From contig CAXMOP010000045.1 of the NCBI GenBank assembly GCA_964195155.1, positions 23,636 through 87,635 of the forward strand: a stretch of 64,000 nucleotides of DNA. The letters are read 5' to 3'. Below the pieces are notes generated by a model. That model was not told where the DNA came from and did not search any database. It was given only the letters and a program-made list of their open reading frames with translations. The position numbers and the translations under genes are program-made. Positions 11,176 to 41,770 of the stretch are shown here, piece by piece. Numbering within the stretch: position 1 is the stretch's first letter; each line of letters opens with the position of its first letter. The stretch comes from an uncultured Kiloniellales bacterium (GTDB lineage Bacteria; Actinomycetota; Acidimicrobiia; Spongiisociales; UBA5794).

Positions 11176-12078
11176 ATGACGATGGCCATCGAGGCGGTCG
11201 GCCTGACGAAATACTACGGAGACACCCCCGGGATCATCGACCTCAACCTCGAGGTCGAGACGGGGGAGATCTTCGGGTTCCTGGGCCCGAACGGGGCCGG
11301 CAAGAGCACCACCATCCGGACCCTGCTCGACCTGCTCCACCCATCATCCGGGACCGCGACCATCCTCGGATTCGACAGTCACACGGATTCGGTTGAGATC
11401 AGACGGCGCACCGGCTATTTGCCTGGGGACCTTTCGATGTACGACCACATGACCGCACGCGAGATGCTTCGCTACTTCTCGTCGCTGCGCGGCATCGAAA
11501 CATCGGCTCGTGTCGAAGAGTTGGCCCGGCGCCTCGAACTCGACCTCGACCGGAAGATCGGGTCCTACTCGAGCGGAAACCGTCAGAAGGTCGGGGTCGT
11601 GCAAGCGTTCATGCATGACCCGGAGCTGCTGATCCTCGACGAACCAAGCACCGGGCTGGATCCGCTCATGCAGCAGGAGTTCTATGCCATGATCGACGAG
11701 GTCAAGAACGCGGGCCGCACTGTATTCCTCTCCTCACACATCCTTCCCGAGGTGGAGCGCACCGCGGACCGGATCGGGATCGTCCGCAACAGCGAGCTCG
11801 TCACGGTGCAGACCATCGCCGACCTGAAGGAAAAGGCGCGTCGACACTTCCAGATTGTCTTCGGTGAGCCCGTGGCGCCCGACGAGTTTTCCGGGCTGCC
11901 CGGCGTTCAGTCGGTGGTCTCGTCCCACGACGGCTACGGCGTCGACATCGTCATCGAGGGCCCGGTCGACGGGATCCTCGGCGCCGCCGCCAAACACCAC
12001 ATGGAGAACGTGATCTCACACGAGGGGGATCTCGAGGACGCCTTCCTCGCGTTCTATGAGGACGACGATGCTGCCTAG
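11176..12078 (+). CDS. ABC transporter ATP-binding protein
   Basis: Walker A GPNGAGKST, signature YSSGNRQKV, Walker B LLILDEPSTGLD. Confidence 0.85.
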   Translation: MTMAIEAVGLTKYYGDTPGIIDLNLEVETGEIFGFLGPNGAGKSTTIRTLLDLLHPSSGTATILGFDSHTDSVEIRRRTGYLPGDLSMYDHMTAREMLRYFSSLRGIETSARVEELARRLELDLDRKIGSYSSGNRQKVGVVQAFMHDPELLILDEPSTGLDPLMQQEFYAMIDEVKNAGRTVFLSSHILPEVERTADRIGIVRNSELVTVQTIADLKEKARRHFQIVFGEPVAPDEFSGLPGVQSVVSSHDGYGVDIVIEGPVDGILGAAAKHHMENVISHEGDLEDAFLAFYEDDDAA

Positions 12079-12192
12079 GAGGGTGCTGAGCAATCCTCCA
12101 GCGGGCCCGTCGCGGTCGCGAGAAACCGAGCCACCGCAACCCTCGAGCAAGCGGCGGCCCATGGCACCGGTCATTGTTCAGCACCCTCCTGA
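12075..12192 (+). repeat. MITE/REP-like ~117-bp element, copy A (terminal inverted repeats, CTAG terminus supplying the ABC ATPase stop codon)
   Basis: ctaggagggtgctgagcaatcc...gtcattgttcagcaccctcctga. The 5' end is nearly the reverse complement of the 3' end. Four related copies lie at ~15386, ~28733, ~30382 and ~41655. Confidence 0.7.
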
Positions 12193-12256
12193 GGCGAAGC
12201 GGATTCGATCAGCTCGCGGTACACAGGTTCGCCACCTACGAGATGAAGGCTCGTAA

Positions 12257-13927
12257 GTGATGTTTGGCTCCGTCTTCACCAAGACCATATGGGAGCGCCG
12301 GTGGGGGATGATCGGCTGGGTGCTCGGCGGGCTCGCCACCGTCATGTTCATGATTGCGGTCTACCCGATCGTTCGTGATTCCGCAGGGTTCGTCGAGGCG
12401 ATCGAGAGCCTGCCAGAGGAGTTCCTCGCCTTCGCCGGGATCGACCCGGAGCTGTTCACGACCGGGGCCGGGTTCCTGCAAGCGCAGATGTATTCGCTGC
12501 TGGGCCCGCTCTTGGTTCTCATCCTTGCCATCGGGATCGGCGCCTCGGCGACCGCAGCCGAGGAGGCAACCGGGACGGCGGACCTGCTCCTGGCTACGCC
12601 GGTCACCAGGTCACGGGTCGTGATCGACAAGGCACTGGCGATGATGTTCCTCGTCGGGATGCTGGTCCTGGCGTTCGTTGTCGGCTTGCTCATTGGCCAG
12701 GTGGTGGTCGACCTGCAGCTGGAAGCACTTGGGATCATCGGTGTCAACGTCGGCTTGCTGCTGCTCGGACTCTTCTTTGGGGCCCTCGCCCTCATGATCG
12801 GGGCCTGGAGCGGAAAGCGAGCCCTGGCGACCGCGGTGGCCGGGGGCGTTGCGGGGCTGTCGTTTGTGATCGACAGCTTTGCCCCACTGGTGTCGAGCTT
12901 CGAGACCATCCAGCCGTACACACCCTTCTCCTGGTATTCGGCCGACATCCCGATCCTCGTGGGCCCAACCAGCGGTCATCTGCTGCTCCTCGCCGGGAAT
13001 GTCCTGTTCACCGCGGGCGCCGTACTGCTTTTCCAGCGCCGCGACCTCGCGGTCTTCGCCGGGCTCCGGCTGCCCTTCCGCGTCGGGCGGGAACGGCAGG
13101 CGAGGAGCTCCACGAGCCCGCTGCTCACCACCATTGGTGGCAAGGGGATCTGGGACCGACGCCGGTCTTTCTGGTGGTGGCTCGCCGGGATCGGCGCTCT
13201 CGCGGCTGTCACCATCTCGCTGTTCCCGAGCCTGGACGAAAGCGGAGACGCATTTCAAGGCCTCCTCGAGGCCTATCCGCCCGAGCTTCTTGCCATGTTC
13301 GGAATCACCGACATCGGCTCGCTGCTGACCGGTGCCGGCCTGGTGTCGTCACGCGTCTACCAAGGCATCGGCCTGGTGGTGTTCCTCACGTTCGCCATCG
13401 GGATCGGCAAAGCAGCCCTCGCCGGCGAAGAGCAGGATGGAACCGCCGATCTCCTCCTCACCACGCCGTCGACCCGGGATCGGGTGGTCCTTGGCAAGGC
13501 GACGTCAATGATGCTGCTGCTGCTTGCCCTCGCGTTCGGCGTGTTCGTCTTCGTCTGGGTCGGTGACCTCATCGTCGACCTCGGCCTCAGCCTCGATGGC
13601 CTGATCGCCGCCAACGTGGGGATGGCGTTCCTCGCATTCCTGTTTGGTGCGATCGCGCTGGCGACCGGGGCGGCTACCGGCAAGCCCGGCGTGGCAATCG
13701 TCGTCGCTTCGGGGATCGGTGTGGTGACATTCCTCCTCAACGGGTTCGGGACCGTCGTCGATTGGCTGGAGCGTGTGCGCCCGCTCTCGCCGTTCTACTG
13801 GTATCAGGGCGACAGCAACCCCCTCAGCCAGAACCTCGGCTGGCAGCAGCCGCTGCTTCTCGCGATTGGGCTCATATTCGTCGCCGCTGCCGTCTTCCTC
13901 TTCAGGCAGCGCGACATCGGGACGTGA
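12257..13927 (+). CDS. ABC-2 type transporter permease (duplicated 6+6 TM)
   Basis: 556 aa with two homologous halves, each containing multiple TM helices. It lies downstream of the ABC ATPase. Confidence 0.7.
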   Translation: MMFGSVFTKTIWERRWGMIGWVLGGLATVMFMIAVYPIVRDSAGFVEAIESLPEEFLAFAGIDPELFTTGAGFLQAQMYSLLGPLLVLILAIGIGASATAAEEATGTADLLLATPVTRSRVVIDKALAMMFLVGMLVLAFVVGLLIGQVVVDLQLEALGIIGVNVGLLLLGLFFGALALMIGAWSGKRALATAVAGGVAGLSFVIDSFAPLVSSFETIQPYTPFSWYSADIPILVGPTSGHLLLLAGNVLFTAGAVLLFQRRDLAVFAGLRLPFRVGRERQARSSTSPLLTTIGGKGIWDRRRSFWWWLAGIGALAAVTISLFPSLDESGDAFQGLLEAYPPELLAMFGITDIGSLLTGAGLVSSRVYQGIGLVVFLTFAIGIGKAALAGEEQDGTADLLLTTPSTRDRVVLGKATSMMLLLLALAFGVFVFVWVGDLIVDLGLSLDGLIAANVGMAFLAFLFGAIALATGAATGKPGVAIVVASGIGVVTFLLNGFGTVVDWLERVRPLSPFYWYQGDSNPLSQNLGWQQPLLLAIGLIFVAAAVFLFRQRDIGT

Positions 13928-13935
13928 CCTTCCCG

Positions 13936-14583
13936 ATGGTCGAGGCCGGGGTGCTGCCATGGCTCTCGATCGAGCAGATGACGGAGGCCGATCGGCTTGC
14001 GGTCGAAGAGTTCGGCATCGAGCTGCTCCAGATGATGGAGCATGCCGGCTCCGCCCTGGCCTCAGTGGTGATGGCGATCGCACCTGAAGGACCCATCGCC
14101 GTGCTCGCCGGTGGGGGCAACAACGGCGGGGGTGGTCTGTGCGCAGCCCGCCACCTCGTGAACCGGGGCCGGTCTGTTTCGATCGTCCTCGCCACAGATC
14201 GTCCAGGGACGGCTGCCGGACACCATCTGCACACCCTCGCTGCGATGGGGATTCAGCCACTCGATGAGCCCGATGACCTGCCGATCGTGGTCGATGCCTT
14301 GGTCGGTTACGGCCTCGAAGGACCGCTACGAGGGAAGGCGGCTGAGCTCGCGGCGTGGTCCAAGGGCCGAACGGCAATTTCGCTCGACTTTCCCTCGGGT
14401 CACGGGCACGCCGGCGCGATCGAACCCGTCGCCACGCTCACACTCGCGCTTCCCAAGGAGGACCTTGGCGATGTGCGCCCGCTCTACCTCGCCGACATTG
14501 GCCTCCCCCGGAGCCTGTGGGCGGCCATGGGCCTCGACGTCGGGCCGGTGTTCAAGGCCGGAGGAGTGGTTGAGGTCGTCTGA
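13936..14583 (+). CDS. NAD(P)H-hydrate epimerase (YjeF N-terminal domain)
   Basis: LAGGGNNGGGGL motif typical of YjeF_N. The start is set at the ATG at 13936 to avoid overlap with the permease. Confidence 0.65.
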   Translation: MVEAGVLPWLSIEQMTEADRLAVEEFGIELLQMMEHAGSALASVVMAIAPEGPIAVLAGGGNNGGGGLCAARHLVNRGRSVSIVLATDRPGTAAGHHLHTLAAMGIQPLDEPDDLPIVVDALVGYGLEGPLRGKAAELAAWSKGRTAISLDFPSGHGHAGAIEPVATLTLALPKEDLGDVRPLYLADIGLPRSLWAAMGLDVGPVFKAGGVVEVV

Positions 14584-14593
14584 GGCAAAGCGA

Positions 14594-14622
14594 GAGGCCC
14601 CCGCCGGGCGGGGGCCTCCTCG
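14594..14622. terminator. GC-rich hairpin between convergent genes (putative bidirectional terminator)
   Basis: gagaggcccccgccgggcgggggcctcctc forms a perfect 12-bp stem. It lies between the YjeF_N stop (14583) and the minus-strand stop (14640). Confidence 0.5.
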
Positions 14623-14639
14623 TCGTAGGTTTGATCTAG

Positions 14640-15305
14640 CTACTCGCCCATTCGGCCCTTGGCACCGGGTGTGCCGTACTTGGCCCACCATTGCTTTGCA
14701 GCATCGATGCCTCCAACGCCGAAGGCAATCGCCAGGGCAATGCCGAAGGCGGCCACCACCAGACTGACGAGTTGGGCGGCGAACTCGATTTCAAGCAGAT
14801 CGAGCGCGAACAAGACGCCAAACACGATGATCGCGACCTGGGCGACCCAGGCGAGCCACGCAACGCCGCGGTCCGCGGCGAACGGCCGAATCAGATCCGC
14901 AGTCCAGCTGGCGACGGCCGCGGCGATGATCACAACGATCGCACCGAGGATCAGCACCGGTATCCACGCCAGTAGGCGCTCGAGCAGAGCTTCGATGCCG
15001 GAGAGGTTCAGGATCCGCACCGCCACCAAGACCAGACCCACCATCAGGTAGGCATATACCACGGTTCCGGTTATGGATGCGGCGGTCTGATCCGAGTCTG
15101 CGAGCGCGCGGTTGACGCCCGAACGCTCCCAAACCCCGTCGAGCCAGGAAACGCTAAGAACCCGCTCAATGATCCGACGGACCCATTTCAGGACCCAACG
15201 CCCAATGATCAATATCAAGAGCGCGATAGCGATCAGAATCGTCCACTCGACGAGTGTCTCGCCGAGCATGCGCAGCTCCTCCAACAGTCGATCCCAAAAT
15301 GACAA
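14640..15305 (-). CDS. Hypothetical membrane protein with repeated conserved TM helices (MscS N-terminal-like)
   Basis: Multiple long hydrophobic helices (TILIAIALLILIIGRWV, VVYAYLMVGLVLVAVRIL, AIVVIIAAAVASW, VAQVAIIVFGVLFALDLL). Confidence 0.45.
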   Translation of the reverse strand: MSFWDRLLEELRMLGETLVEWTILIAIALLILIIGRWVLKWVRRIIERVLSVSWLDGVWERSGVNRALADSDQTAASITGTVVYAYLMVGLVLVAVRILNLSGIEALLERLLAWIPVLILGAIVVIIAAAVASWTADLIRPFAADRGVAWLAWVAQVAIIVFGVLFALDLLEIEFAAQLVSLVVAAFGIALAIAFGVGGIDAAKQWWAKYGTPGAKGRMGE

Positions 15306-15385
15306 GATGTGCCTCCTTCTATCCCTGGCAGGGGACTATGGCATGCGGCACAGCCATGGGCCAATCGGATTGTGGAGACAGCTCG

Positions 15386-15502
15386 CTAGGAGGGTGTTGA
15401 GCAATCCTCTAGCGTGCCGGCGCTGACTGGAGAATCCGAGTCACCGCAACACTCAAGCGAGCGGCGGCTCAGGGCACTCGTCATTGTTCAACACCGTCCT
15501 AG
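15386..15502 (+). repeat. MITE/REP-like element, copy B
   Basis: ctaggagggtgttgagcaatcctctagcgtgcc...tcattgttcaacaccgtcctag. Its 3' CTAG supplies the stop of the minus-strand oxidoreductase gene. Confidence 0.7.
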
Positions 15503-16047
15503 TCGTCGGCCGGCGAGTCCCAGTCGGTAACGTTCTTTCCCGCTTCGCGGGCGAGAATGTCGAGGGCTGCGGTGGCTCCGGCGCCGGCGGAGATGATCGC
15601 CTGACTTCGCTCGGGCCGTGCCGATCTGCCCACCGCATAGACGCGATCCATCGAGGACGCATATTCACGGTTCACCACGATGGCCCCTGAATCGTCGAGG
15701 GCGAGGCCGAGCGACCGTGCCAGCGCCGGGTTCTTGCCCTCGGAAAAGATGAGATAGTCGTAGGTGGCGCTGTCGGACTCGGTTGCCACGGTGAATCCGC
15801 CATCGGCAGAGACTGCCGTTACCTCGTCATCGACGATGCTGCCGCCGACGGCGGTGACCTGCCCGCGGGCGATCTCTTGGAAATCCGATCCGTCGATCTC
15901 GCGGATCCCGAGGTAGTTGTGGAGATATGCGAACTGCATCGCCGTCTTGTCGGTCCCGTACACGATCGCTTCGTGCCCGTTCTTTGCCAGGAAGAGTGCC
16001 GCCGACAGACCTCCTGGCCCGTCCCCGATGATCGCAATCGATGTCAT
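15499..16047 (-). CDS. FAD/NAD(P)-binding oxidoreductase (short thioredoxin-reductase-like)
   Basis: N-terminal dinucleotide-binding motif IAIIGDGPGGLSAA and a C-terminal GAGATAA-like segment. Confidence 0.55.
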   Translation of the reverse strand: MTSIAIIGDGPGGLSAALFLAKNGHEAIVYGTDKTAMQFAYLHNYLGIREIDGSDFQEIARGQVTAVGGSIVDDEVTAVSADGGFTVATESDSATYDYLIFSEGKNPALARSLGLALDDSGAIVVNREYASSMDRVYAVGRSARPERSQAIISAGAGATAALDILAREAGKNVTDWDSPADD

Positions 16048-16097
16048 CTCGCTCCCTCTATCGCTTAGGGTCGCTCAACGCACAGATCTGCTCAGAT

Positions 16098-16388
16098 ATG
16101 CCCATGCAAGCACCGATCGCGGCAACAAAGTTCACGGTCTACGGGCGGGTGCAGGGCGTCGGTTTCCGATGGTCAACCCGACGAGTTGCCGGCGAACTAG
16201 ACCTCGCAGGCTGGGCAAGAAATCGCCCGGACGGTTCGGTTGAGACATGGGCGCAGGGTTCTGCTGAGGCAATCACGCAGATGGCATCATTCCTCGAACA
16301 GGGGCCCGCCGGCGCTCGAGTCGCGGCTGTTAAGGCTGAACAGGTTGAACCCGACCATCTGCTCGAAGGTTTCCAGATCCTCTTTTGA
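16098..16388 (+). CDS. Acylphosphatase
   Basis: VYGRVQGVGFRWSTRRVAGELDLAGWARNRPDGSVE matches acylphosphatase signatures 1 and 2. Confidence 0.8.
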   Translation: MPMQAPIAATKFTVYGRVQGVGFRWSTRRVAGELDLAGWARNRPDGSVETWAQGSAEAITQMASFLEQGPAGARVAAVKAEQVEPDHLLEGFQILF

Positions 16389-16403
16389 CTCGCGACTCGC
16401 GAC

Positions 16404-16739
16404 TCAGAGGTGCTCGTTGATCTGCACGGGGGTTCCGTCGGGATCCTCCAGCACGATCGAGCGGCCGAAGGTCTCGTCGGCAATCCCTCTCGCCGGCTGG
16501 ATGCCGTGGTCGGCGAGGCGCAGTACGACCGCCTCGAGGGGCTCGGCGGTCACCAGGGACAGCTCCACACGACCCCGCTGTGGCGAATTCTCGACGCTAT
16601 GCACCCCGAGCGTTGCCCCACCGACATCGAACGCGGTCCACATGTCGGACTCAATGGTTGGCTTCGATCCGATCACATGGCCGTACCACTCGACGGCGGC
16701 TTCGGTGTTGCCGGTGTAGATGATTGGCTGCAGTTTCAC
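16404..16739 (-). CDS. VOC (glyoxalase/bleomycin-resistance) family protein
   Basis: 111 aa. GTG start, overlapping the upstream small ORF's stop (GTGA). Confidence 0.65.
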   Translation of the reverse strand: MKLQPIIYTGNTEAAVEWYGHVIGSKPTIESDMWTAFDVGGATLGVHSVENSPQRGRVELSLVTAEPLEAVVLRLADHGIQPARGIADETFGRSIVLEDPDGTPVQINEHL

Positions 16740-16885
16740 TTCCGCTCCTTCTCGCTCAGATAGGCCTCGAGGGCGTCGGCTACGAAATCGGACAGTCGCT
16801 GTTCCGCTTCGATGGCGGCGTGCTTGACTCGCTTGATGAGCGGCTCGACCAAGTAAACATTGAATTGTTTCTTCTCTTCGGGCAT
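16736..16885 (-). CDS. Putative ribbon-helix-helix (CopG/Arc-like) small protein, 49 aa
   Basis: Encodes MPEEKKQFNVYLVEPLIKRVKHAAIEAEQRLSDFVADALEAYLSEKERK, a beta-strand (FNVYL) followed by two helices. Its stop is coupled to the VOC start. Palindromic ctagtgtgttagtgttctag lies upstream. Confidence 0.4.
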   Translation of the reverse strand: MPEEKKQFNVYLVEPLIKRVKHAAIEAEQRLSDFVADALEAYLSEKERK

Positions 16886-17041
16886 TTTGCTAGTGTGTTA
16901 GTGTTCTAGCATCTTGTCAAGGGACACCATGTCACTGGATTCCGCACCGGTGGTGTCGTTCATTGCGACCACGGACGCCGAGCTGGTTCCTGGACCCTGC
17001 TGACAACATCCTGTCGATCACTCAGCGCGGCTGATAAACAC

Positions 17042-18295: not shown

Positions 18296-18419
18296 GCGGA
18301 GATCATGTCACGCCCGTGTGACAGAACTTCCCTCTTTCGTCGATCGAATCATGGTCAAGTGCGAGCACAGCGTCGGTCGATGGACCAGAATCGACGCCGT
18401 GCCAGCCAGAATCGACACC

Positions 18420-18809: not shown

Positions 18810-18816
18810 GGCCGAC

Positions 18817-20883: not shown

Positions 20884-20886
20884 ACC

Positions 20887-20938
20887 GTTCTTGCGTAGCA
20901 GACGGCCATATATCGCTCCTGGCTACGCAAGAACGGGA
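20887..20938. terminator. Perfect 15-bp inverted repeat hairpin (ccgttcttgcgtagc...gctacgcaagaacgg), terminator/regulatory-like
   Basis: Seen directly. A 15-bp perfect stem with a 22-nt loop lies 3' of the small ORF and upstream of tRNA-Gly. Confidence 0.4.
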
Positions 20939-20971: not shown

Positions 20972-21042
20972 GCGGGTGTAGTTCAATGGCAGAACATCAG
21001 CTTCCCAAGCTGAATACGGGGGTTCGATTCCCCTCACCCGCT
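20972..21042 (+). tRNA. tRNA-Gly (anticodon CCC)
   Basis: Cloverleaf: acceptor GCGGGTG/CACCCGC, D-arm GTTC..GAAC, anticodon stem TCAGC/GCTGA with loop TTCCCAA, T-arm GGGGG-TTCGATT-CCCCT. 71 nt. Confidence 0.8.
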
Positions 21043-21044
21043 CA

Positions 21045-22596: not shown

Positions 22597-22597
22597 G

Positions 22598-28320: not shown

Positions 28321-28614
28321 TCAGCTCTCGCGGTCCACTCTGCGAAGAACCTTGTGTCGGACGACGGCGTCGGAAAGGCCCAGGGCCCGGTCGAGAGCCT
28401 CGACCAGGTTGATGTCGCCGCTGAAGTCGACCACCGAGTAATACCCCTCGGACATGTGGTCGATTTCGTAGGCGAATCGCTTCTTTCCCAGGTATTCGGT
28501 CCCGGCGACGGAACCGCTGGTGTCAATGGTCGCGGAGACTTCCTCGACCTGTTTTTGAACGTCGGCTTCGGCCATGTCGGGCCGGTGAATGATCGTCAGC
28601 TCATATGAGCGCAT
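28321..28614 (-). CDS. rpsF: 30S ribosomal protein S6
   Basis: MRSYELTIIHRPDM...KKRFAYEIDHMSEGYY. Confidence 0.85.
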   Translation of the reverse strand: MRSYELTIIHRPDMAEADVQKQVEEVSATIDTSGSVAGTEYLGKKRFAYEIDHMSEGYYSVVDFSGDINLVEALDRALGLSDAVVRHKVLRRVDRES

Positions 28615-28732
28615 GTCAGCTCCTCTGGACATCCCGTTGGGGAAGGCCCCGGCAAAAGGGCAGGACTATCGGATGTGACGCGAAGAGTAGCGGAGGGCGT
28701 CGCGTAGCCGAGTAGCCGAATATCCGGTACTC

Positions 28733-28846
28733 AGCTGGGACGGTGTTGAGCAATCCTCCAACGTGCCGGCGCTCACTGGGGAAACCGAGTCACCGCAACA
28801 CTCAAGCAAGCGGCGGCTCAGGGCACTCGGAATATTCAAGAGCTCA
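28733..28846 (+). repeat. MITE/REP-like element, copy C (in the rpsF operon upstream region)
   Basis: ctgggacggtgttgagcaatcctccaacgtgccggcgct... It is nearly identical to copy B over ~95 bp, with a degenerate 3' end. Confidence 0.65.
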
Positions 28847-28894
28847 GCCACGCGCCAGCCCGAGGCGGGGGTTACCCAAACGAGCGCACCTCGG

Positions 28895-29329
28895 CTACTC
28901 ACTCAAGGTCGTCAAGACCGAATCGGCACCCACAAACTGCAACTCATCCGCCGGGGCCTCGACCGCATAACGGTACGGCCCACCGGCGTGGTACGTCGGG
29001 CAGTCGCCGGTGGTGCATGGCTCCATGGTCAGCATGTCGACGAAGGTCCCATCGTCTGCGAAGAAGGCGATGTCGAGCGGGATCAAGGTGTCCTTCATCC
29101 AGAAGCCGCTCTCGGTGTCGGCCTCGAAGAGGAACAACATGCCATCGACTCCCCCGAGGTCGGTGAGCCCCATCAGTCCCCGGCTCCGGGCTTCCGGTGT
29201 ATCGGCGACGGCGACGACCATCTGGCGATCATCGATTGACACCGACGTCGAGAGAAGCCCTGCCAGCGTCGGCACCGGCGATGCGGTACATGCCGCGACG
29301 AATAGTGCAACGAGCGCGAGCCTCTTCAT
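28895..29329 (-). CDS. DUF192-domain secreted/lipoprotein
   Basis: Signal peptide with lipobox-like LVALFVAAC. DUF192 signature region MKDTLIPLDIAFF. Confidence 0.5.
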   Translation of the reverse strand: MKRLALVALFVAACTASPVPTLAGLLSTSVSIDDRQMVVAVADTPEARSRGLMGLTDLGGVDGMLFLFEADTESGFWMKDTLIPLDIAFFADDGTFVDMLTMEPCTTGDCPTYHAGGPYRYAVEAPADELQFVGADSVLTTLSE

Positions 29330-29356: not shown

Positions 29357-30220
29357 TCACTGATCGGCGTGGGCCTCCAGGTCGGCGAGGCCGGCCAGGA
29401 TCTCAGCCGACTCGGCAGGCATGTGATAGGTCTCGTCCTCCCCAGGGAACACGCCGGACTCGATGTCGGCGAAGAATCGCTCCATGGCCGCGACCGCATC
29501 GTCGGCAAGGTTGGCGTAGCGGCGGACGAACTTCGGTTGGAAGTCGCCGCTGCCGAGCCCAAGCACGTCGTGGTAGACCAGCACCTGCCCGTCACAGTGG
29601 GCGCCTGCTCCGATGCCGATGGTCGGGATCGGAATCTCCCGGGTAACGATCTCTGCAACCTTCTCCGGCACCGCTTCGAGTACCAACGAGAACACCCCGG
29701 CGTTGGCCAGCGAGTGGGCGTCGCTGATCATCTCGTAGGCCGCCTGGGCCTCTTTGCCTTGCACCTTGTAGCCGCCCATGGCGTGCACGGACTGTGGGGT
29801 GAGCCCGAGGTGGCCCATCACCGGGATCTCGGCGTCGATCACCTTCTCGATCGCCTCCAGGCGCTTTCTGCCGCCCTCGAGTTTGACCGCCTCGGCGCCT
29901 CCCTCGCGCACGAAACGACCGGCGTTTCGCACGGTGTCCTCGGGCGATACGTGGTAGCTCATCCAGGGCATGTCGCCGACCACGAGCGCATCGGGCCCGG
30001 CGCGTGACACCGCTGCGGTGTGGTGGACCATCACGTCGACGTCGACCGCCAGGGTGTCCTGGTGGCCGAGAACGACGTTGGCGACCGAGTCTCCAACCAG
30101 GATGATGTCTGCTCCCGCCCGGTCGGCGATGATTGCCGACGGGTGGTCGTAGGCGGTGATCATCTTGAGCTTGAGGCCGCCCTTGCGCGAGCGAATCCCC
30201 GGGACGGTGACCTTTGCCAT
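29357..30220 (-). CDS. panB: 3-methyl-2-oxobutanoate hydroxymethyltransferase
   Basis: KMITAYDHPSAIIADRAGADIILVGDSVANVVLG, typical of PanB. Confidence 0.9.
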   Translation of the reverse strand: MAKVTVPGIRSRKGGLKLKMITAYDHPSAIIADRAGADIILVGDSVANVVLGHQDTLAVDVDVMVHHTAAVSRAGPDALVVGDMPWMSYHVSPEDTVRNAGRFVREGGAEAVKLEGGRKRLEAIEKVIDAEIPVMGHLGLTPQSVHAMGGYKVQGKEAQAAYEMISDAHSLANAGVFSLVLEAVPEKVAEIVTREIPIPTIGIGAGAHCDGQVLVYHDVLGLGSGDFQPKFVRRYANLADDAVAAMERFFADIESGVFPGEDETYHMPAESAEILAGLADLEAHADQ

Positions 30221-30381
30221 TGCTGCTCCTCTCTCCCCACCGCTTCGGGTTGGGGGAACGCTTGTGCAGTCTTCTTCCTCGTGGAACCGGAAATCGGCAT
30301 CGGCCGCCGCATGCGGTCGCCCGTGCCTGTGGGTCCTACGAGGGGAACGCTAGCAAACCGCCGGAGATTCCGGGACGGCTC

Positions 30382-30485
30382 ACGAGGGCTCTGAGCGATC
30401 CACTCGCGGTGGGTCGCCGCTCGATCCATGGCCACAGTGCCATGGCGGCGGGCCGCAGCATTTGTCATTGTTCAGAACTGTCCTA
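30382..30485 (+). repeat. MITE/REP-like element, copy D (diverged)
   Basis: gagggctctgagcgatcc...tttgtcattgttcagaactgtcctag. Both termini are shared with the other copies. Confidence 0.5.
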
Positions 30486-30495
30486 GCGTTGCAGC

Positions 30496-30978
30496 ATGGC
30501 ACGCAAAGACATCTCCATGACCGACGAGGAGCTACTGGTCTTCCTCGGAGACGGGCAGAAGACCCTCCAGGTCTCATCGAACGACCACGACGGCTTTCCC
30601 CATATCGTCCCGATGTGGTTCTTGGTCGAGGAGCCAAAGGTGGTGTTCCGGTCGTTCTCCAAGTCGCAAAAGATCGTCAACCTGCGGCGGGATCCGAAGA
30701 TCGCGGTGCTCGTCGAGGAGGGCAAGTCCTACGAAGAGCTCCAGGGGGCAATGATCAAGGGCGAAGCGACATTGATCGACGACGCCGACTACTGCCTCGA
30801 CCTCTATGTCGGCCTAGCGGACCGGTACTCGTTCTTCTCGGGCGTCGAACCCGGGGCAACCCCCGAGCAAGAGGTGCGTGAGTACTTTGCCGGCTTCGCA
30901 CCGAAACAGACTGCAGTGATCGTGGAGCCAATGGAGATCGTCTCCTGGGACTACCGGAAGCTGAGCGGTGGGTACTGA
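30496..30978 (+). CDS. Pyridoxamine 5'-phosphate oxidase family protein (likely F420/FMN-binding split-barrel)
   Basis: PNPOx-like fold hallmarks: HIVPMWF...KVVFRS...KIVNLRRDPKIAVLVEE. Confidence 0.55.
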   Translation: MARKDISMTDEELLVFLGDGQKTLQVSSNDHDGFPHIVPMWFLVEEPKVVFRSFSKSQKIVNLRRDPKIAVLVEEGKSYEELQGAMIKGEATLIDDADYCLDLYVGLADRYSFFSGVEPGATPEQEVREYFAGFAPKQTAVIVEPMEIVSWDYRKLSGGY

Positions 30979-32394: not shown

Positions 32395-32526
32395 CGGTTG
32401 GTATATCGAACCGATATAGCTATATCGATTCGGTCAGATGGCTTTCGACGCCGACTGGCGTCGACGCCATCTTCCAAGGTGTCACCCTCCGGGTGACCCG
32501 ATCTGGCTGGTTCGCAGACCCCTGGC

Positions 32527-34443: not shown

Positions 34444-34617
34444 GAAAAACCTCGAAAGTTGCTCAAGGAGATGGGGGGTGGGGTCGATACGTTACCTAGA
34501 CAGGATGCCTTCCTACCTCCCGTCTAGCCCGAGCCGAGGCCGCCGCAAGGCGGCCTTCGGTTCGTCCGGAGGAAGTCCGGAGTCGACTCCACAGTCGAGC
34601 GCCCTATCTTCACGCCC

Positions 34618-35304: not shown

Positions 35305-35507
35305 GCCCCTCTCGAGCCGTCCTCGATGCAGAGTGGGAAAATCCCTCCCGACCGCCGTGCGCAACTGCGGATGCCGGACGATCCGCTCAGATCAACACAA
35401 GCAAGAGACCACCAGCCCGCATCCGCTGCGCTCCCGGAACCGGCACGGAGATGATGTGCACCTCACCTTGGAATGTTTCCCCCCGAGGAGGGAGCGGCGA
35501 AAGATTC

Positions 35508-36299
35508 CTATTTGCCGTAGCGGCGCTTGCGTCGGGTGAAATCCCGCAGGGCGCGCAGGAAGTCGACGTGCCGGAACGCCGGCCAGTAGACGTCGACAAA
35601 CGCATACTCGGCGTACGCCGCCTGCCAGAGCAGGAATCCGGAGAGTCGCGCCTCCCCAGAAGTTCGGATCACAAGATCGGGATCCGGCAACCCCGCGGTG
35701 TACAGGTTGGCGCCGATACCGTCGGCGTCGATGCGGCCGACGATCTGGTCTGAGGAAACCCCTTCGTCGGCAAGGGTACCGATGAGGTCGCGCACGGCGT
35801 CGACGATCTCCTGGCGGCCCCCATAGGCCAGAGCGATGGTCACTCGGCGCTGCCCATCCGGCATCTGCTCCTCGAGGCGCTTTGCTGCGGCGACGAGGTC
35901 GGGCGGCAGCAGGTCGAGGCTGCCGATGAAGCGCACTCCGACGTCGTGACGACTGAGGGCAATTGGGATCTGCTCGAACAGCTCACCGAGCACCTCGTAA
36001 TAGGGGACCAGCTCCTCCTGGGGTCGTTGCAAGTTCTCCTTGGAAAGCAGCCAGCAGGTCACGGCCGGAATCTCGAGGTCCTCGGTCCAATCGAGAAACT
36101 CGATGAACTTGGTCATCCCTACCCGGTACGACGCCGCATAGTCGGGAAGGCCCTCGCTTCTGGCATAGCGACGATGACCGTCGTGGATGACGCCGATGTG
36201 GTCGGGAAGCTTGGTCCGGTCCAGTTCAGAGAGGAGGCGGTCTTCGTAGATGCGGTACAGCGGGCGAGTGGCCAGGTCGCGAAATCCCATGTGCGGCAT
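35508..36299 (-). CDS. uppS: Isoprenyl transferase (cis-prenyltransferase / UPP synthase family)
   Basis: HIGVIHDGHRRYA, WLLSKENLQRP, ALAYGGRQEIV. Start chosen at the internal Met. Confidence 0.75.
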   Translation of the reverse strand: MPHMGFRDLATRPLYRIYEDRLLSELDRTKLPDHIGVIHDGHRRYARSEGLPDYAASYRVGMTKFIEFLDWTEDLEIPAVTCWLLSKENLQRPQEELVPYYEVLGELFEQIPIALSRHDVGVRFIGSLDLLPPDLVAAAKRLEEQMPDGQRRVTIALAYGGRQEIVDAVRDLIGTLADEGVSSDQIVGRIDADGIGANLYTAGLPDPDLVIRTSGEARLSGFLLWQAAYAEYAFVDVYWPAFRHVDFLRALRDFTRRKRRYGK

Positions 36300-36412
36300 G
36301 GTAGGAGCGTCGACGCCAAGAGCGAATGAGTCGACCGTCCTATTCGTCCCGGGGTTCTCAGTGCAACCGGCAAGTGGCAACATGGGGACGAGACATTGAA
36401 GAGGGAGCCGAT

Positions 36413-36811
36413 ATGGCGATGTCCGACGAACACAAGGCGGCGCTGGCCCAGGGTCGCGCCGAATCGAGAGCGATCAAGGCCTATTTGGCGGTGGCGACCG
36501 CCCCAAAGAAGCGGGGCCGGCCGGTGACGCGCGCATCGCTCGAGGAGCGGATCATCGCCCTCGACGCCAAGGTAAGCACCGAGGACGACCCGCTTGCCCG
36601 AGTGGACCTCATCCAGGCACGAATCGATGCCCGGCGAGCCCTCGACGATCTCGACTCGGCAGCGGATCTGGAGGCGCTCGAAGCGGGATTCACCAAATAC
36701 GCCGCCTCCTACTCCGAGCGCAAGGGCATCACCTGGACGGCGTGGCGGGAGGCCGGCGTCACGGCCGCAACGCTGCGACGCGCCGGTATCAAACAAACCC
36801 GACAACGCTGA
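36413..36811 (+). CDS. Hypothetical protein (basic, KKRGRP AT-hook-like motif)
   Basis: ORF with a plausible ATG. No recognised family. Confidence 0.35.
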   Translation: MAMSDEHKAALAQGRAESRAIKAYLAVATAPKKRGRPVTRASLEERIIALDAKVSTEDDPLARVDLIQARIDARRALDDLDSAADLEALEAGFTKYAASYSERKGITWTAWREAGVTAATLRRAGIKQTRQR

Positions 36812-36974
36812 GGCTGCACCAAAAAGCGCGTGCCCAGGGTTCCAGACCCCCCCGTATACGCTGACCTGAACCCTGGGTATGGGGAACTAACCCGTTTGGG
36901 CGCCGAAATATGACTCTTGTTTTGGGCCGGGCGCACCATCAACCCAACCCTCGATTCCGGCCGATATCAGTGAT

Positions 36975-37700
36975 ATGGCAGCACCAGTCCTGGAATCCGT
37001 TATCGAGGCGCATCAGTACGCTGCGGATGTGAACTTTCGGCTGCGGCGCTGGTCGATCGGCAAGATGCAGAACCCGGTTCGTGGATTCCTTCACGGCACG
37101 ACGGCCGTGCTGGGAATCCTCGGCACCGCACTCCTCTTGATGAACGCCGACACCTTGACGCACCGACTCGGGGTGCTGGTGTTCGGGCTAGCGATCGTTG
37201 GCCTGTACACCACCAGCTCGCTCTACCACTCCATCCCGTGGCGGGAGCGGTGGAAGAAGCGAATGCAACGAGCCGACCGGTCGATGATCCTGGTCCTGAT
37301 CGCCGGCACCTATACCCCGTTTGCGGTCATCGTGCTCGACGCCCCGCTGCAATGGGTAGTGCTTGGCCTCGCCTGGGGCCTCGCCATTGCCGGGACCATC
37401 CAGCAGGCCTTCTTCCCCAAGATTTCCGGATCGGTGCCGGTGGCGCTCGCCACCGTGCTCGGCTGGCTGTCGCTGCTCTTCATCGTGCCGCTGATCGACC
37501 GGCTCGGTTGGCTACCAATCGTTCTCGTCGGAATCGGCGGGGTCATCTACACGATTGGCATGGTGTTCCTCGTCACCAACCGCCCCCGCCTGTGGCCGAG
37601 GGTGTTTTCGTACCACGAGGTCTTCCACGTCATGACCGTTGCCGCCACGGCGCTGCACTTCATCGTGATCTGGCAATGGGTCGTGCCGTTCGCGTCCTAG
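36975..37700 (+). CDS. Hemolysin III / PAQR family membrane protein
   Basis: 7-TM profile. SSLYHS and LVLIAGTYTPF motifs. Confidence 0.75.
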   Translation: MAAPVLESVIEAHQYAADVNFRLRRWSIGKMQNPVRGFLHGTTAVLGILGTALLLMNADTLTHRLGVLVFGLAIVGLYTTSSLYHSIPWRERWKKRMQRADRSMILVLIAGTYTPFAVIVLDAPLQWVVLGLAWGLAIAGTIQQAFFPKISGSVPVALATVLGWLSLLFIVPLIDRLGWLPIVLVGIGGVIYTIGMVFLVTNRPRLWPRVFSYHEVFHVMTVAATALHFIVIWQWVVPFAS

Positions 37701-37718
37701 TTCTCCCGAGCCTCTGGC

Positions 37719-38117
37719 TCAGGAGGGTTCTTCCGCCTTCTCGAAGCCAAGCGACGCCGAGTTGATGCAGTAGCGAAGCCCGGTGGGGTTGGGCCCATCG
37801 TCGAAGATGTGGCCGAGATGGGCGCCGCAGTTGTGGCACACCGCCTCGGTGCGCTTCATCAGCAGGCTCCGGTCGTCCTTGGTGTCGACTGCGGCGTCAT
37901 TGCTCGGCTGATAGAAGCTCGGCCAACCGCTGCCGGACTCAAACTTGGTGTCGCTGGAGAACAGCGCCTCGCCGCACACCACACAGGTATACGTGCCGTC
38001 GTCGTGGTTGTCCCAGTAGATGCCGGTGAACGGGCGTTCGGTGCCGGCCTCCTGGGTGACGTGAAACTGGAGGTCGCTCAGCCGGTCGCGCAGGGTGGAT
38101 TTCGTGTTGTCGCTCAT
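37719..38117 (-). CDS. msrB: Peptide-methionine (R)-S-oxide reductase
   Basis: [28 protein letters not shown]...[16 protein letters not shown]. Confidence 0.9.
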
Positions 38118-38187
38118 ACGGGAAGGCTACCCCCGGTCGGTTCGATCGGAGACGCTGCGCTGCGAACACTGCACCTAGAGTTGGTCG

Positions 38188-41100
38188 GTGACCGTGATTT
38201 GCCCTTCGTGTAGTGCAACAGCCGATGCCGGGGCCAGATTTTGCGCGACCTGTGGCACGTCGCTTGTGGCGACCTGCCCCATGTGTGGGGCCGAGACGGC
38301 ACCAGGAGCAGCGTTCTGTGCTTCCTGTGGGACCTCGCTGACCCCGCAGGAGGCCGTAACGGAGACCAGGGCGGTGGAGGAGCGCAAGGTGGTGTCGGTC
38401 CTGTTCGCCGACCTCGCCGGGTTCACCGAGCGCACCGAACGCTCCGACCCCGAGGACGTTCGAGCCCGCCTCACCATCTATCACAAGACGGCCCGCGAAC
38501 AGGTCGAGGCTCATGGCGGCCGAGTCGAGAAGCTGATGGGCGACGGAGTCTTCGCCATCTTCGGGGTCCCCGCCGCCCACGAGGACGACCCGGAACGGGC
38601 GGTGCGCGCTGCGCTGCGGCTTCAGGAGGCAATCGCAGTCCTCAACGAAGACGACCCGGATCTCGCATTGTCGGTACGGGTGGCGGTCACGACCGGCGAG
38701 GCGATCGTCCAACTCGATGCCGATGACCAGGACCGCGAGACGATCATCGGTGACGTGGTCAACACCGCATCGCGCCTCGAGGCGATCGCTCCCCCGGGCG
38801 GGATCGTCGTCGACGAGCGCACCTACCTGGCGTCACGCGCCGACATCTCCTTCGAAGACCTCGACACGGTCGACCTGAAGGGCAAGGCCGACGCCACCGC
38901 TATCTGGCTCGCCACCGGAGCCCGGGCACGCCACGGCGTTGCTGTGGAAGAGCGGCACAAGGGCCCGTTCGTCGGTCGGAGCACCGAACTCGCCGTGCTG
39001 GTCGACTCGCTCGACCGGACCATCGCCGCCCAAACCGTTCAGCTGGTGACGATTATGGGTGAGCCGGGAGCGGGAAAGAGCCGGCTGCTCCACGAGTTCA
39101 AGGCCGTCCTCGACACGAGGACCGACACGATGTGGTGGAAGCAGGGCCGCTGTCTCCCCTATGGGGAAGGCATCACCTTCTGGGCGCTCGGCGAGATCGT
39201 CAAGGCGCAGGCCGGGATCCTCGAGACCAACAGCGAGACCGACGCCGATCGCAAGCTTCGCCACGCCGTGGTCACGCTGATCGACGACCCGGCCCAGGCG
39301 GAGTGGGTTGTGTCGCGCCTCGCCCTGCTCGCCGGTGGGACCGGTGAAGACCAGCAGATCGAACAGGGGGAGTTGTTCTCGGCATGGTCGCGGTTCTTCG
39401 AAGCGATGGCGCACCGCCACCCGCTGGTGATGGTCGTGGAAGACATCCACTGGGCAGACCAAGCCCTGCTCGACTTCATCGAGTACGTCGCCGAGTGGGC
39501 CGTCGACGTGCCGATCCTGCTGGTCGCCGCGGCCCGACCGGAACTGCTCTCGAGCCGTCCGAGCTGGGGCGGTGGCATCCGCAATTCGGCCACCATCAGC
39601 TTGGCACCACTCGCCAACGACGATGCGGCCGTTCTGCTGGCAGCACTGCTCGATCGCGCCGTGCTCCCGGCCGAGACCCAACAGCTCATCCTGGAGCGGG
39701 CCGGCGGAAACCCGCTCTACGTGACCGAGCTGGTTCGCCTCGCCGCAGACGCCGATCTGTTGGATGAGGCCGGCAAGATTGAGGAGCTCGCCCTACCCGA
39801 CTCGGTCCAGGCCATCATCGCCGCCCGGCTCGACCTTCTCGACACCGAGGAGAAGGAGTTGCTCCAGGCGGCCGCGGTGATGGGCAAGGTGTTCTGGTCC
39901 GGGGCCCTCGCGGCGCTCAGGCCGTCCGCGCACTCGGCGCCGACGGTTCGCGAGCTGGTTCGCCGGGAGATGATCCGGCCGATCCGCGACGCTTCGATGC
40001 AAGGGCAAGAGGAGTATTCCTTCGTCCACGCCCTCGTTCGCGATGTGGCGTACGGCCAGATCGCCCGCGACGACCGGGCCGAGATGCATCAGGCAGCAGC
40101 GACATGGATCGAGGCGGTGAGCGGCGAGCGGGGTGTCGACGTGGCCGAGTTGCTCGCTTACCACCTCGGCGAAGCGCTATCGCTGACCACCGACCCCGAT
40201 GCCGAACTTCGGGCGCGGGCCTACCGGGTGCTGATGCAGGCCGGTGAGCGAGCCCGCGGGCTCAACCCGACCCAGGGGGCCTCCTACTACCTCAAGGCCG
40301 TCGACGCGGCCGACGTCAACACCGATCGGGCCGAGGCGCTGTTGTGGGCAGGACAGCTCAGCCAGGACGATCTGGAGAAGTCCAAACGGTGGCTCGAGGA
40401 GTCCCTCGCCCTCTACCAGGAGGCCGGCGATCCCGAGGGGCAGGCCGATGCCCTCACACAGATGTCAGGCTGGAGCTGGTGGCGAGGCGAGACCGAACGC
40501 GCCGACGAGCAGATCCACAAGGCAATCACACTGCTCGAAGACCGGCCCGACTCCGAGGCCAAGGCGGAGGCCCTGGTGGCCAACGTCGGCAAGCTGTTTC
40601 TCCGCGGACGTGATGCGGAGGCCGTCGCGGCCGCGGACCTGGCTGCTCCCGTCGTCGATGCCGCTGGGACCGCGGAAGACCAGATCAAACTGCTGTCGCT
40701 CAGGGGTGCCGCCCTGGCCAACTCCGGGCTCAACGAGGAGGGACTTGAAGACATGGCAACGGCGATGGGGATCGCAGACGACCGCAACTTCTCGTTCCAA
40801 TCGGTGACGATTCGCAACAACCTCGCAACGCTGACCCACCAGCTTCGATCGCCACAGGATGCCGTGGCGATCATCAATGAAGGCATCGAGCTTTCAAACG
40901 AGCGAGGCCTCCCGGCGTCTACCGACTGGTTGCGCTTCACCAAGTCCGAGATACTCATCTGGACCGGAGACTGGGACGAGTCGGTCGCTCTCGCCCGGGA
41001 GGTCATCGAGGCCGACGACGAGCGCGGCGGGAGCCAGGCCGGGATGGGCGCCCGATCGCACATCGGGATCATCGAGCACTACCAGGGGGTCGAACACCCC

Positions 41101-41658
41101 TCGGTGCGGTGGGTGGAACTCATCGAGCACGCCCGGGAGGTCCAGGATCAACAAGTGCTCTCACCGGTGCTGGCGATCGCGGTGATGATGGCGTACGACG
41201 CCGGTAACCAGACCGACGCGGTGCGCCTTGCCGACGAATACCACGCGGCTGCGATCGACCTGTATCGGACCTGGTTCCTCCCGTGGGTGACCGGACCGCT
41301 CGCCCGTATTGGCGACGTCGATCGAATCGAGGCCCTCCTCGAAGGGTCACCTGTCAACGGAAGCCACGCAAAGGTGGGTCGGGACCGTGCCGAAGGCCAT
41401 CTAGCCGAGGCCCGAGGCGATCATGGAGCGGCAGCAGATCGGTTCTTCGACGCGGTCGCCACCGCCGGGCAATTCGGCCGACCGCTCGACGCCGCCCTCG
41501 CCCGGATCGACGCGGCGAGGGTGCTCACGAACGACGATCGGTTTGACGACACCGTGGCCGCGGCTCGTGAGGAGGCGGAGCGGATGGGTGCAGACCGGCT
41601 CCTGGCGCAGCTCGACGAGATCGAAGGCCACGGGCGGTCTCAGGCTGCGGGGGCCTAG
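38188..41658 (+). CDS. Multidomain regulatory protein: double zinc-ribbon + class III adenylate/guanylate cyclase + STAND/AAA ATPase + TPR
   Basis: Two C4 ribbons (CPSCSATADAGARFCATCG, CPMCGAETAPGAAFCASCG). CHD region VVSVLFADLAGFTERTE...KLMGDGVFAIFGVP. P-loop GEPGAGKSRLL. A long helical TPR-like C-terminus. No LuxR HTH is evident. Confidence 0.8.
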   Translation: MTVICPSCSATADAGARFCATCGTSLVATCPMCGAETAPGAAFCASCGTSLTPQEAVTETRAVEERKVVSVLFADLAGFTERTERSDPEDVRARLTIYHKTAREQVEAHGGRVEKLMGDGVFAIFGVPAAHEDDPERAVRAALRLQEAIAVLNEDDPDLALSVRVAVTTGEAIVQLDADDQDRETIIGDVVNTASRLEAIAPPGGIVVDERTYLASRADISFEDLDTVDLKGKADATAIWLATGARARHGVAVEERHKGPFVGRSTELAVLVDSLDRTIAAQTVQLVTIMGEPGAGKSRLLHEFKAVLDTRTDTMWWKQGRCLPYGEGITFWALGEIVKAQAGILETNSETDADRKLRHAVVTLIDDPAQAEWVVSRLALLAGGTGEDQQIEQGELFSAWSRFFEAMAHRHPLVMVVEDIHWADQALLDFIEYVAEWAVDVPILLVAAARPELLSSRPSWGGGIRNSATISLAPLANDDAAVLLAALLDRAVLPAETQQLILERAGGNPLYVTELVRLAADADLLDEAGKIEELALPDSVQAIIAARLDLLDTEEKELLQAAAVMGKVFWSGALAALRPSAHSAPTVRELVRREMIRPIRDASMQGQEEYSFVHALVRDVAYGQIARDDRAEMHQAAATWIEAVSGERGVDVAELLAYHLGEALSLTTDPDAELRARAYRVLMQAGERARGLNPTQGASYYLKAVDAADVNTDRAEALLWAGQLSQDDLEKSKRWLEESLALYQEAGDPEGQADALTQMSGWSWWRGETERADEQIHKAITLLEDRPDSEAKAEALVANVGKLFLRGRDAEAVAAADLAAPVVDAAGTAEDQIKLLSLRGAALANSGLNEEGLEDMATAMGIADDRNFSFQSVTIRNNLATLTHQLRSPQDAVAIINEGIELSNERGLPASTDWLRFTKSEILIWTGDWDESVALAREVIEADDERGGSQAGMGARSHIGIIEHYQGVEHPSVRWVELIEHAREVQDQQVLSPVLAIAVMMAYDAGNQTDAVRLADEYHAAAIDLYRTWFLPWVTGPLARIGDVDRIEALLEGSPVNGSHAKVGRDRAEGHLAEARGDHGAAADRFFDAVATAGQFGRPLDAALARIDAARVLTNDDRFDDTVAAAREEAERMGADRLLAQLDEIEGHGRSQAAGA

Positions 41659-41770
41659 GAGGGTGCTGAGCAACCTCAAGCGGGGCCTCGCGGTCGGGAG
41701 AAACCGAGTCACTGCAACAGTCGAGCTAGCGATGGCCCGTGGCACTCGTCATTGTTCAGCACCGTCCTAA
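41655..41770 (+). repeat. MITE/REP-like element, copy E
   Basis: ctaggagggtgctgagcaacc...gtcattgttcagcaccgtcctaa. Its 5' CTAG supplies the stop of the 1156-aa gene, and its 3' end supplies the stop of the minus-strand RidA gene. Confidence 0.7.

Follow-up and report, generated by a model that had tools for sequence, protein, structure and literature searches.

The repeat unit of pneumococcus (RUP) is a 107-bp, hairpin-forming, intergenic element that has terminal repeats and a TA duplication and is attributed to the insertion sequence (IS) IS630-Spn1. The Correia/NEMIS elements of Neisseria are 100-155 bp long, have 26-bp terminal repeats and a TA duplication, exist in hundreds of copies that are often adjacent to genes, and carry promoters together with IHF and RNase III sites; to our knowledge no partner transposase is known for them. 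Here we analyze a family of 105-118-bp repeats, five copies of which (A to E) are present in a 64-kb stretch of contig CAXMOP010000045.1 (hereafter the window, meaning the whole stretch that was analyzed) from an uncultured member of the Acidimicrobiia. Our analysis indicates that these repeats are a miniature inverted-repeat transposable element (MITE), a deletion-type derivative of a DDE insertion sequence that is most likely mobilized in trans by an IS1182-family transposase, a reading to which we assign a probability of roughly 0.8. The family is previously unnamed and is a MITE of an ordinary kind. Like RUP it is about 107 bp long, intergenic and hairpin-forming, has terminal repeats and a TA duplication, and is proposed to be mobilized in trans by a resident IS. 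It differs from RUP in having termini that match the IS1182 family rather than an IS630 partner, as well as in host phylum and sequence. With the Correia/NEMIS elements it shares its size class, terminal repeats, TA duplication, copy number and gene-adjacent positions.

MITEs derived from the IS1182 family have already been reported in Methanosarcina (PMC3852290). Specifically, the ISMac2-derived MITEs of Methanosarcina acetivorans are likewise short, non-coding and multi-copy, with 25-26-bp termini that match an IS1182-family IS (PMC3852290). Compared by description rather than by sequence, they differ in being archaeal, 160-169 bp long and accompanied by 4-bp or no duplications, whereas the repeats described here are Acidimicrobiia elements of 105-118 bp whose target duplication is TA within CTAG and which number at least 137 in one metagenome-assembled genome (MAG). 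A further comparison is provided by MITEPsy1 and the IS5-family elements ISPsy2 and ISPsy19 of Pseudomonas syringae (PMC3189936), whose termini (GGAAGGTCTGAAAAAGCC, GAGGGTGTAGACAAAAT) are similar to the terminus GGAGGGTGCTGAGCAAT of the window repeats; the 100-nt MITEPsy1 has CTAG or YTAA as its target. These elements belong to IS5 proper and have 3-4-nt duplications, in contrast to the 2-nt duplication of the family under study and the best match of its linked transposases to IS1182 (NF033551). IS5 proper was considered as the partner and rejected, since the linked transposases described below score far better against IS1182 models and far more weakly against IS5 models. The MITE terminus also presumably resembles that of the Escherichia coli IS5 element.

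Repetitive extragenic palindromic (REP) sequences and bacterial interspersed mosaic elements (BIMEs), with their REP-associated tyrosine transposases (RAYTs), resemble the window repeats in being intergenic palindromic repeats with no transposase gene nearby, and the initial annotation of this DNA had drawn that analogy. It does not carry over. REPs are 20-40-nt palindromes without target duplication that are moved strand-specifically by a Y1 (HUH) transposase, whereas the window element is 105-118 bp long, has TA duplications and clean empty sites, shares its termini with DDE-type insertion sequences of the IS1182 family and exhibits no family-wide strand bias.

Alignment of the five window repeats shows that they form one family with all copies on the plus strand. 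A profile built from the five re-finds each copy on the strand and at the place where the initial annotation had put it (E = 5e-22 to 4e-36; Table 1) and detects no further strong copy in the 64-kb window (nhmmer), and a pattern composed of the two termini matches copies A, B, D and E in the window with 0 matches in 100 shuffles. Full-length copies A, B and E are 116-118 bp long. The termini, which had been described as near reverse complements, are indeed inverted repeats of about 20 bp, and they form the outer stem of a long hairpin in each intact copy. Except for copy C, the hairpin folds lie at z = -3.5 to -5.3 relative to shuffled controls. The subfamilies proposed at the outset exist as well, with two corrections: copy D represents a shorter subfamily of about 105 bp, and in copy C the right terminus is decayed and the left one, which reads CTGGGACGG, is mutated.

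The termini and flanks were quantitated in 251 copies from related Acidimicrobiia genomes and metagenomes in which both ends could be located. Across these copies the terminal inverted repeat of about 20 bp, GGAGGGTGCTGA[G/A]CAAT (GGAGGGTGCTGAGCAAT / ATTGTTCAGCACCCTCC), is conserved, and the element proper extends from GGAGGGTGCTGAGCAATCC to GTCATTGTTCAGCACC(C/G)TCC, with a first base that stays G and a last base that stays C (GGAGGG...CCCTCC). A TA dinucleotide flanks the left end of 222 copies, the right end of 192 and both ends of 179. The base before the left TA is predominantly C (159, compared with T in 11, A in 6 and G in 3) and the base after the right TA is predominantly G (134, compared with C in 20, A in 20 and T in 5), so the preferred target context is CTAG around the TA. 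These outer bases vary independently (C..C in 20 copies, C..A in 19 and T..G in 11), and because they do not co-vary the target duplication is the 2-bp TA and not 4 bp. Duplications of 4 bp (CTAG) or 3 bp were rejected on these grounds and on the constancy of the inner G and C. Thus, of the CTAG-bounded ends that had first been described, the inverted termini stand, but the outer C and G are target context and the TA is duplicated target, so that these four bases are not part of the element.

Uninterrupted sites in relatives show the same duplication. Orthologous regions were located by a protein search with the ABC-transporter ATPase encoded next to copy A, which yielded orthologues of graded similarity, and three of their contigs were fetched. 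At site B the window reads ...CTCG C TA [113-bp element] TA G TCGTCGGCCGGCGAGTCCC, while the empty site in the Acidimicrobiia genome BMS9Abin07 (contig L116) reads ...GGAG C TA G TCGTCTGAGGGCGAGTCCC (GGAG-C-TA-G-TCGTC) and that in contig L117 reads ...GAGT T TA G TCCTCGGAGGGCGAGTCCC (GAGT-T-TA-G-TCCTC). At site A the window reads GCC TA[G GAGGG...CCTCC] TG A GGCGAAGCGG, and both contig L118 (94% protein identity) and contig L117 read GCC TGA GGCGAAGCGG, as does L116, which likewise lacks copy A. At A and at B, therefore, the element plus 2 bp has been cleanly inserted, in each case within a stop codon.

This association with stop codons is a recurrent feature of the window copies. The TA of A, of B and of both ends of E is part of a stop codon of a neighboring gene. 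Copy A lies between the ABC-transporter ATPase gene (11176-12078), whose TAG stop codon at 12076-12078 coincides with the left end of the element, and a permease gene (12257-13927). Copy B is flanked by two minus-strand genes, a MscS-like gene (14640-15305) and a Pyr_redox_2 gene (15499-16047; both by Pfam), the latter having its stop codon at the right end of the element (CTA at 15499-15501, read on the minus strand). Copy E fits exactly between a convergent pair, a cyclase/AAA gene (38188-41658, plus strand) and a RidA-like gene (41767-42222, minus strand), whose stop codons (TAG at 41656-41658 and CTA at 41767-41769, respectively; open reading frame (ORF) ends, Pfam) are located at its two ends. 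With a G as its first base and a C as its last, the element recreates TAG at each junction, on the strand reading into it. Furthermore, CTAG is scarce in the window, with 38 occurrences observed against 212 expected from base composition and 72 expected under a first-order Markov model. MITE copies account for seven of the 38, and of the other 31 there are 6 in stop codons and 15 in intergenic DNA. In the MAG APA_bin_98, 121 of 137 copies are intergenic by a crude gene call and about 20 have the stop codon of a neighboring gene in their terminus.

We propose that the 105-118-bp element is a DDE insertion sequence minus its transposase gene. A transposase acting in trans, whose most likely source is an IS1182-family element with matching ends, would bind the terminal repeats of about 20 bp, and integration would occur with a 2-bp stagger at TA, preferably in CTAG, which would duplicate the TA. 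Insertion into the TA of a stop codon would preserve a stop codon for each abutting gene, so such insertions are presumably neutral. CTAG is very scarce in this genome of 64% GC and clusters at gene ends and in spacers, and the rebuilding of stop codons combined with the rarity and location of CTAG would account for a strictly intergenic, stop-codon-hugging distribution.

The family is not confined to the window. A genome collection was scanned with the two-terminus pattern; the matches listed are mostly in APA_bin_98 (JAPOQZ01), and the counts that follow are lower bounds. The genome collection and metagenomes yielded over 400 additional copies that have these termini, a result that disposes of the concern that additional copies or shared termini might be lacking. 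The listed genome-collection loci contain 159 copies (nhmmer), of which at least 137 are near-identical 107-bp copies in the fetched tiles of APA_bin_98 alone (nhmmer). The metagenome loci add 175 more, comprising 118 of the 107-bp type, 18 of the A-type found in the window and 39 others. Copies are also present in BMS9Abin07 and in the closed Acidimicrobiia chromosome OZ246890.1, which shares with APA_bin_98 a 604-bp stretch of 93% identity that includes an orthologous copy. BMS9Abin07 is the closest named relative of the window and is syntenic with it at 74-80% nucleotide identity, and window proteins have identical matches on metagenomic contigs (ENA ERZ27250328 k141_1895189 and JGI samples) and in the MAG GCA_964194755.1. 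The flanks of young APA_bin_98 copies are mutually unrelated, save for a second repeat family that often abuts them. Hence the non-autonomous, MITE-like mobile repeat that had been suspected is borne out: the element is too short for a transposase gene, ends in inverted repeats, duplicates TA, has both filled and empty sites and occurs as dispersed, near-identical young copies.

Several related repeats accompany it. The abutting family is a second non-autonomous repeat of about 347 bp with termini GTGTCCCGAGTCG...GATACAGGACAC and TA-in-CTAG flanks (L014 4625-4975, L081, L084, L138 and others in APA_bin_98 and MKWU01; 68 blast hits in the fetched loci). Other MITEs have only the outer 14 nt or so (TAGGAGGGTGCTGA) in common, with unrelated interiors (L088 5327-5445, L107 1986-2092, L168 2067-2232 and L152 1071-1174). 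Several non-autonomous families appear to use the same kind of transposase. At L143 1869-2140, a gap of 40 bp separates two tandem A-type copies of like orientation, and two co-oriented A-type copies bracket tyrS beside the 16S rRNA gene in BMS9Abin07 (L097 383-3971). A MITE or IS terminus forms the boundary of many APA_bin_98 contigs, contig 013 starting exactly at an IS1182 end. In plasmids, a blastn search of PLSDB with two copies gave only chance matches of 20-40 nt. A terminus scan of viral contigs gave 0 matches, and a full-text literature search for the terminus sequence returned unrelated primers only; one for a MITE in Acidimicrobiia returned nothing. One pattern match in a Planctomycetales sequence (L039) was set aside as probably a chance hit, as it has no profile match.

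The link to the IS1182 family comes from the termini. When a metagenome collection was scanned with the terminus alone, about 10 termini fell outside any recognized MITE. At one of these, locus L166, C TA GGAGGGTGCTGAACAATCCGCCCGCGTGCC (TA-GGAGGGTGCTGAACAATCC) is followed directly by an ORF with the Pfam domain DUF772 (E = 1.5e-17), and at L201 the same terminus is followed by a frameshifted remnant of the same transposase gene. The left inverted repeats (IRL) of both show 17-19 nt of identity to the MITE terminus, and alignment of the L166 IRL with the left ends of MITE copies A and B shows agreement at 25-26 of the first 30 nt. It is this agreement that makes the MITE best read as an IS1182-family derivative. 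The linked transposase has the Pfam domains DUF772, DDE_Tnp_1 and DDE_Tnp_1_6 and is matched by the NCBIfam model NF033551 (IS1182 family) at E = 2e-76; the score of this C-terminally damaged ORF is 257.9 bits, the cut-off being 270. Complete elements were found by protein similarity to the L166 fragment, for which four homologues were looked up, and not via termini. All five complete elements (L239, L240, L241, L242 and L141; Table 1) have GGAG-NN-TG(C/G)TG termini with TA on both sides in a C-TA-G context. Note that these complete copies are all at CTAG, so that from the IS alone a 2-bp and a 4-bp duplication are indistinguishable. The L241 and L242 elements also sit on stop codons of neighboring genes, and a 99.6%-identical copy of the L141 element occupies positions 1-1840 of L075, at the very start of APA_bin_98 contig 013.

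The absence of a transposase from the window, as the initial annotation had noted, agrees with what was found here: tblastn detects no IS1182-family gene in the window plus about 20 kb of flanks (about 85 kb), and the gene tables available for parts of the window list no transposase. In the APA_bin_98 tiles, no transposase with matching ends was found, and terminus pairs 600-2600 bp apart proved to be separate MITEs or other repeats. A Pfam scan of 20 ORFs located between close MITE pairs revealed housekeeping genes and one truncated, unrelated IS1595 transposase. This last gene (L083 1370-2197, minus strand), whose start codon lies 12 nt downstream of a MITE copy, has no role in MITE mobilization.

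Several observations weigh against an IS1182-family partner and its 2-bp duplication, among them the lack of an IS1182-family gene in and around the window just described. The two loci with exact end matches, L166 and L201, are truncated and come from contigs of about 72% GC and unknown taxonomy. The IS of APA_bin_98 (L075) matches the MITE only over approximately the first 11 nt (GGAGGGTGGTG vs GGAGGGTGCTG). Copy A has TA on its left flank and TG on its right, for which the simplest reading would be that the element entered TG and that a G-to-A change then restored the stop codon (TGG to TAG). Finally, published IS1182-family examples report 4-bp duplications (ISPse1, PMC3281130; the ISMac2 MITEs, PMC3852290), and a TA duplication within CTAG is, according to PMC2170065, the textbook signature of IS630.

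We also considered whether the orientation of the repeats is coupled to the replication fork, as in REP/RAYT or IS200/IS605-type elements, which is improbable in light of the evidence presented below. Five like orientations have a probability of 1/16 by chance, the value given in the initial annotation. The origin region at 57887-61613 comprises rnpA (minus strand), a spacer of about 720 bp and then dnaA, dnaN, recF, dciA and gyrB (plus strand), and the cumulative GC skew reaches its minimum at 58-60 kb, the skew being -0.033 left of dnaA and +0.033 right of it. With oriC inside the window, as indicated by dnaA/dnaN and the skew minimum, the five clear copies therefore lie on one replichore. 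All five copies to the left of oriC are on the plus strand, and the sole copy seen to the right (L113 20095-20211, about 9.5 kb past dnaN) is on the minus strand, so that 6 of 6 copies of this genome fit a replichore rule (p of about 1/32, n = 6). A-type copies that share a contig also always point the same way (window, four pairs; L143, L219 and L097, one pair each), and the GC skew on the element strand is negative in 9 of 13 loci with A-type copies, yet a division of 9 vs 4 loci is not significant.

The larger samples do not exhibit such a bias. In APA_bin_98 there are 67 copies on the plus strand and 70 on the minus strand, adjacent copies have the same orientation in 37 cases and a different one in 26 (p = 0.21), and relative to co-directional flanking genes 14 copies are sense and 10 antisense. 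The element-strand GC skew in this MAG is negative for 65 copies and positive for 58 despite a real skew signal in the tiles (r = 0.31 with gene-strand bias). In APA_bin_98 a marginal preference for the local gene strand (75 vs 49) was discarded, as it was not replicated in the metagenomes (49 vs 47). The metagenome set is equally balanced, with 17 same and 14 different orientations, 17 sense and 17 antisense copies, a gene-strand bias on the element strand of 49 vs 47 and an element-strand GC skew that is negative in 49 cases and positive in 47.

Individual loci also run counter to a fork-coupled orientation. In BMS9Abin07 the two copies of L097 share the orientation of the 16S rRNA gene and are on the G-rich strand, a polarity opposite to that in the window; the counterpart of the copy D site in that genome (L045 at about 635-741) contains an element in inverted orientation; and the relics in the rnpA-dnaA spacer (58.2-58.4 kb) are on the minus strand. 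Moreover, a mechanism by which the strand could be sensed does not follow from near-symmetrical termini and a DDE partner. A family-wide orientation rule is therefore absent, the strand-linked insertion suggested in the initial annotation is not supported as a property of the family, and the uniform orientation of the window copies is most likely chance in a small sample. There is a slim chance that A-type copies in the lineage of the window keep a fixed fork polarity, the top strand of the element falling on the C-rich, lagging-strand side to the left as well as to the right of oriC. If true, this would be a case of a DDE-type MITE with strand-dependent insertion or survival, which would be unexpected given its near-symmetrical termini.

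A different mobilizer, an IS630/Tc1-mariner-family transposase of the kind invoked for RUP, is still less probable. The TA duplication and the strong preference for CTAG match the classical IS630 signature, which rests on Tenzen and Ohtsubo 1991 and on ISY100 data as cited in PMC2170065. However, every transposase gene found beside a matching terminus, or with related termini, belongs to the IS1182 family, no IS630-type gene (DDE_3/HTH_Tnp) is present among about 30 Pfam-scanned ORFs near MITEs, and the IS1182-family elements themselves have TA flanks within CTAG.

Least probable of all, and very improbable, is that the repeats are conserved because of their fold, as a structured non-coding RNA or as a cis-regulatory RNA element. 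In favor of it, the long hairpin of intact copies is well below shuffled controls (z to -5.3), conservation in a central block, CGAGTCACCGCAAC, exceeds that on either side, and a single paired change is seen in the terminal stem of copy B. Against it, Rfam 15 gives no match to the repeats at gathering thresholds (whole window) or at E <= 1 (11900-15700, copies A and B), and RNAalifold on 20 A-type copies consistently predicts only the terminal-repeat stem, with a covariation term of 0.02 and a double change in 3 of 28 pairs, each in one sequence. No compensatory substitutions indicative of an RNA, for which the initial annotation had suggested looking, were found. Copies lie sense, antisense, convergent and divergent relative to their neighbors, their presence/absence polymorphism with TA duplication reflects insertion and not vertical conservation, and subfamilies with unrelated interiors share their termini only. 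Uneven interior conservation, such as that of the CGAGTCACCGCAAC block, can be explained by constraint on transposition-competent master copies of the MITE. Individual copies may nonetheless have been co-opted, for example copy A inside the ABC-transporter operon or copy C upstream of rpsF.

The coordinates of the window copies, relics, origin genes and complete IS1182-family elements are compiled in Table 1.

Table 1. Positions of the repeats, putative relics and replication genes in the 64-kb window and of the complete IS1182-family elements in other loci.
Feature	Sequence	Position	Strand	Details
MITE copy A	window	12075..12192	+	A-type, 118 bp including flanking dinucleotides; nhmmer E = 2.8e-32
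MITE copy B	window	15386..15502	+	A-type, 117 bp; nhmmer E = 4.3e-36
MITE copy C	window	28733..28850 (profile start 28735)	+	A-type; 92% identity to B over 96 nt
MITE copy D	window	30380..30486	+	short subfamily of about 105 bp, left terminus diverged; nhmmer E = 4.7e-22
MITE copy E	window	41655..41770	+	A-type, 116 bp; nhmmer E = 2.3e-33
41-bp mini palindrome	window	36302..36342	.	TA GGAGCGTCGAC...GTCGACCGTCC TA
Decayed relic (tentative), rnpA-dnaA spacer	window	58304-58369	-	nhmmer E = 0.09 (weak)
Decayed relic (tentative), rnpA-dnaA spacer, adjacent	window	58214-58300	-	nhmmer E = 3.4 (weak)
dnaA	window	58950-60356	+	Pfam families in gene table
dnaN	window	60534-61613	+	Pfam families in gene table
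IS1182-family element	L239	2241-4081		termini GGAGCCTGCTGAACAATCC / GGAGTCTGCTGAACAAGG
IS1182-family element	L240	4936-6796		both termini GGAGACTGCTGAACAA
IS1182-family element	L241	3434-5287		both termini GGAGACTGCTGAACAA
IS1182-family element	L242	3391-5235		both termini GGAGACTGCTGAACAA
IS1182-family element	L141			termini GGAGGGTGGTGT / GGAGACTGGTGT; tblastn with L239 ORFs

The remaining window copies are also located in spacers. Copy C is upstream of rpsF (28321-28632, minus strand) and downstream of a DUF192 gene (28895-29329, minus strand), and copy D occupies the divergent spacer between panB (29357-30220, minus strand) and a PNPOx gene (30496-30978, plus strand). The elements found at the copy D site in the window and in BMS9Abin07 were examined as one ancestral insertion; this was rejected, as their termini have opposite orientations and their interiors, tried in both orientations, align no better than shuffled sequences. 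The occupation of the panB/PNPOx spacer in both genomes points to a hot spot or to replacement.

The window also contains remnants of the family. At the BMS9Abin07 counterpart of the 41-bp palindrome there is a full 117-bp copy (L045 6783-6900), and the palindrome is probably an internally deleted relic. This pair of sites was for that reason rejected as a clean empty site, as the relic occupies the site in the window. The two adjacent relics at 58214-58369 have MITE-like termini (GAGGGTACTTGGGAATCC...CAAGTACCCTC), and their identity as MITEs is tentative. A tRNA-Gly (CCC) gene at 20972-21043 is the sole Rfam or ARAGORN match in the window.

No general principle is changed by these results, and the strand bias, which is the sole surprising part, is unsupported by the larger samples. 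The analysis delimits a previously undescribed repeat family in the Acidimicrobiia, a group known mostly from metagenomes, in which copies of the MITE break assemblies and mislead gene callers through spurious ORFs that run across copies. It also links a MITE to the little-studied IS1182 family and suggests that one IS1182 lineage integrates at TA in CTAG, rebuilding stop codons as it does so. As such, the family would provide an example of the low-cost spread of a transposon in a compact, high-GC genome in which CTAG is scarce.

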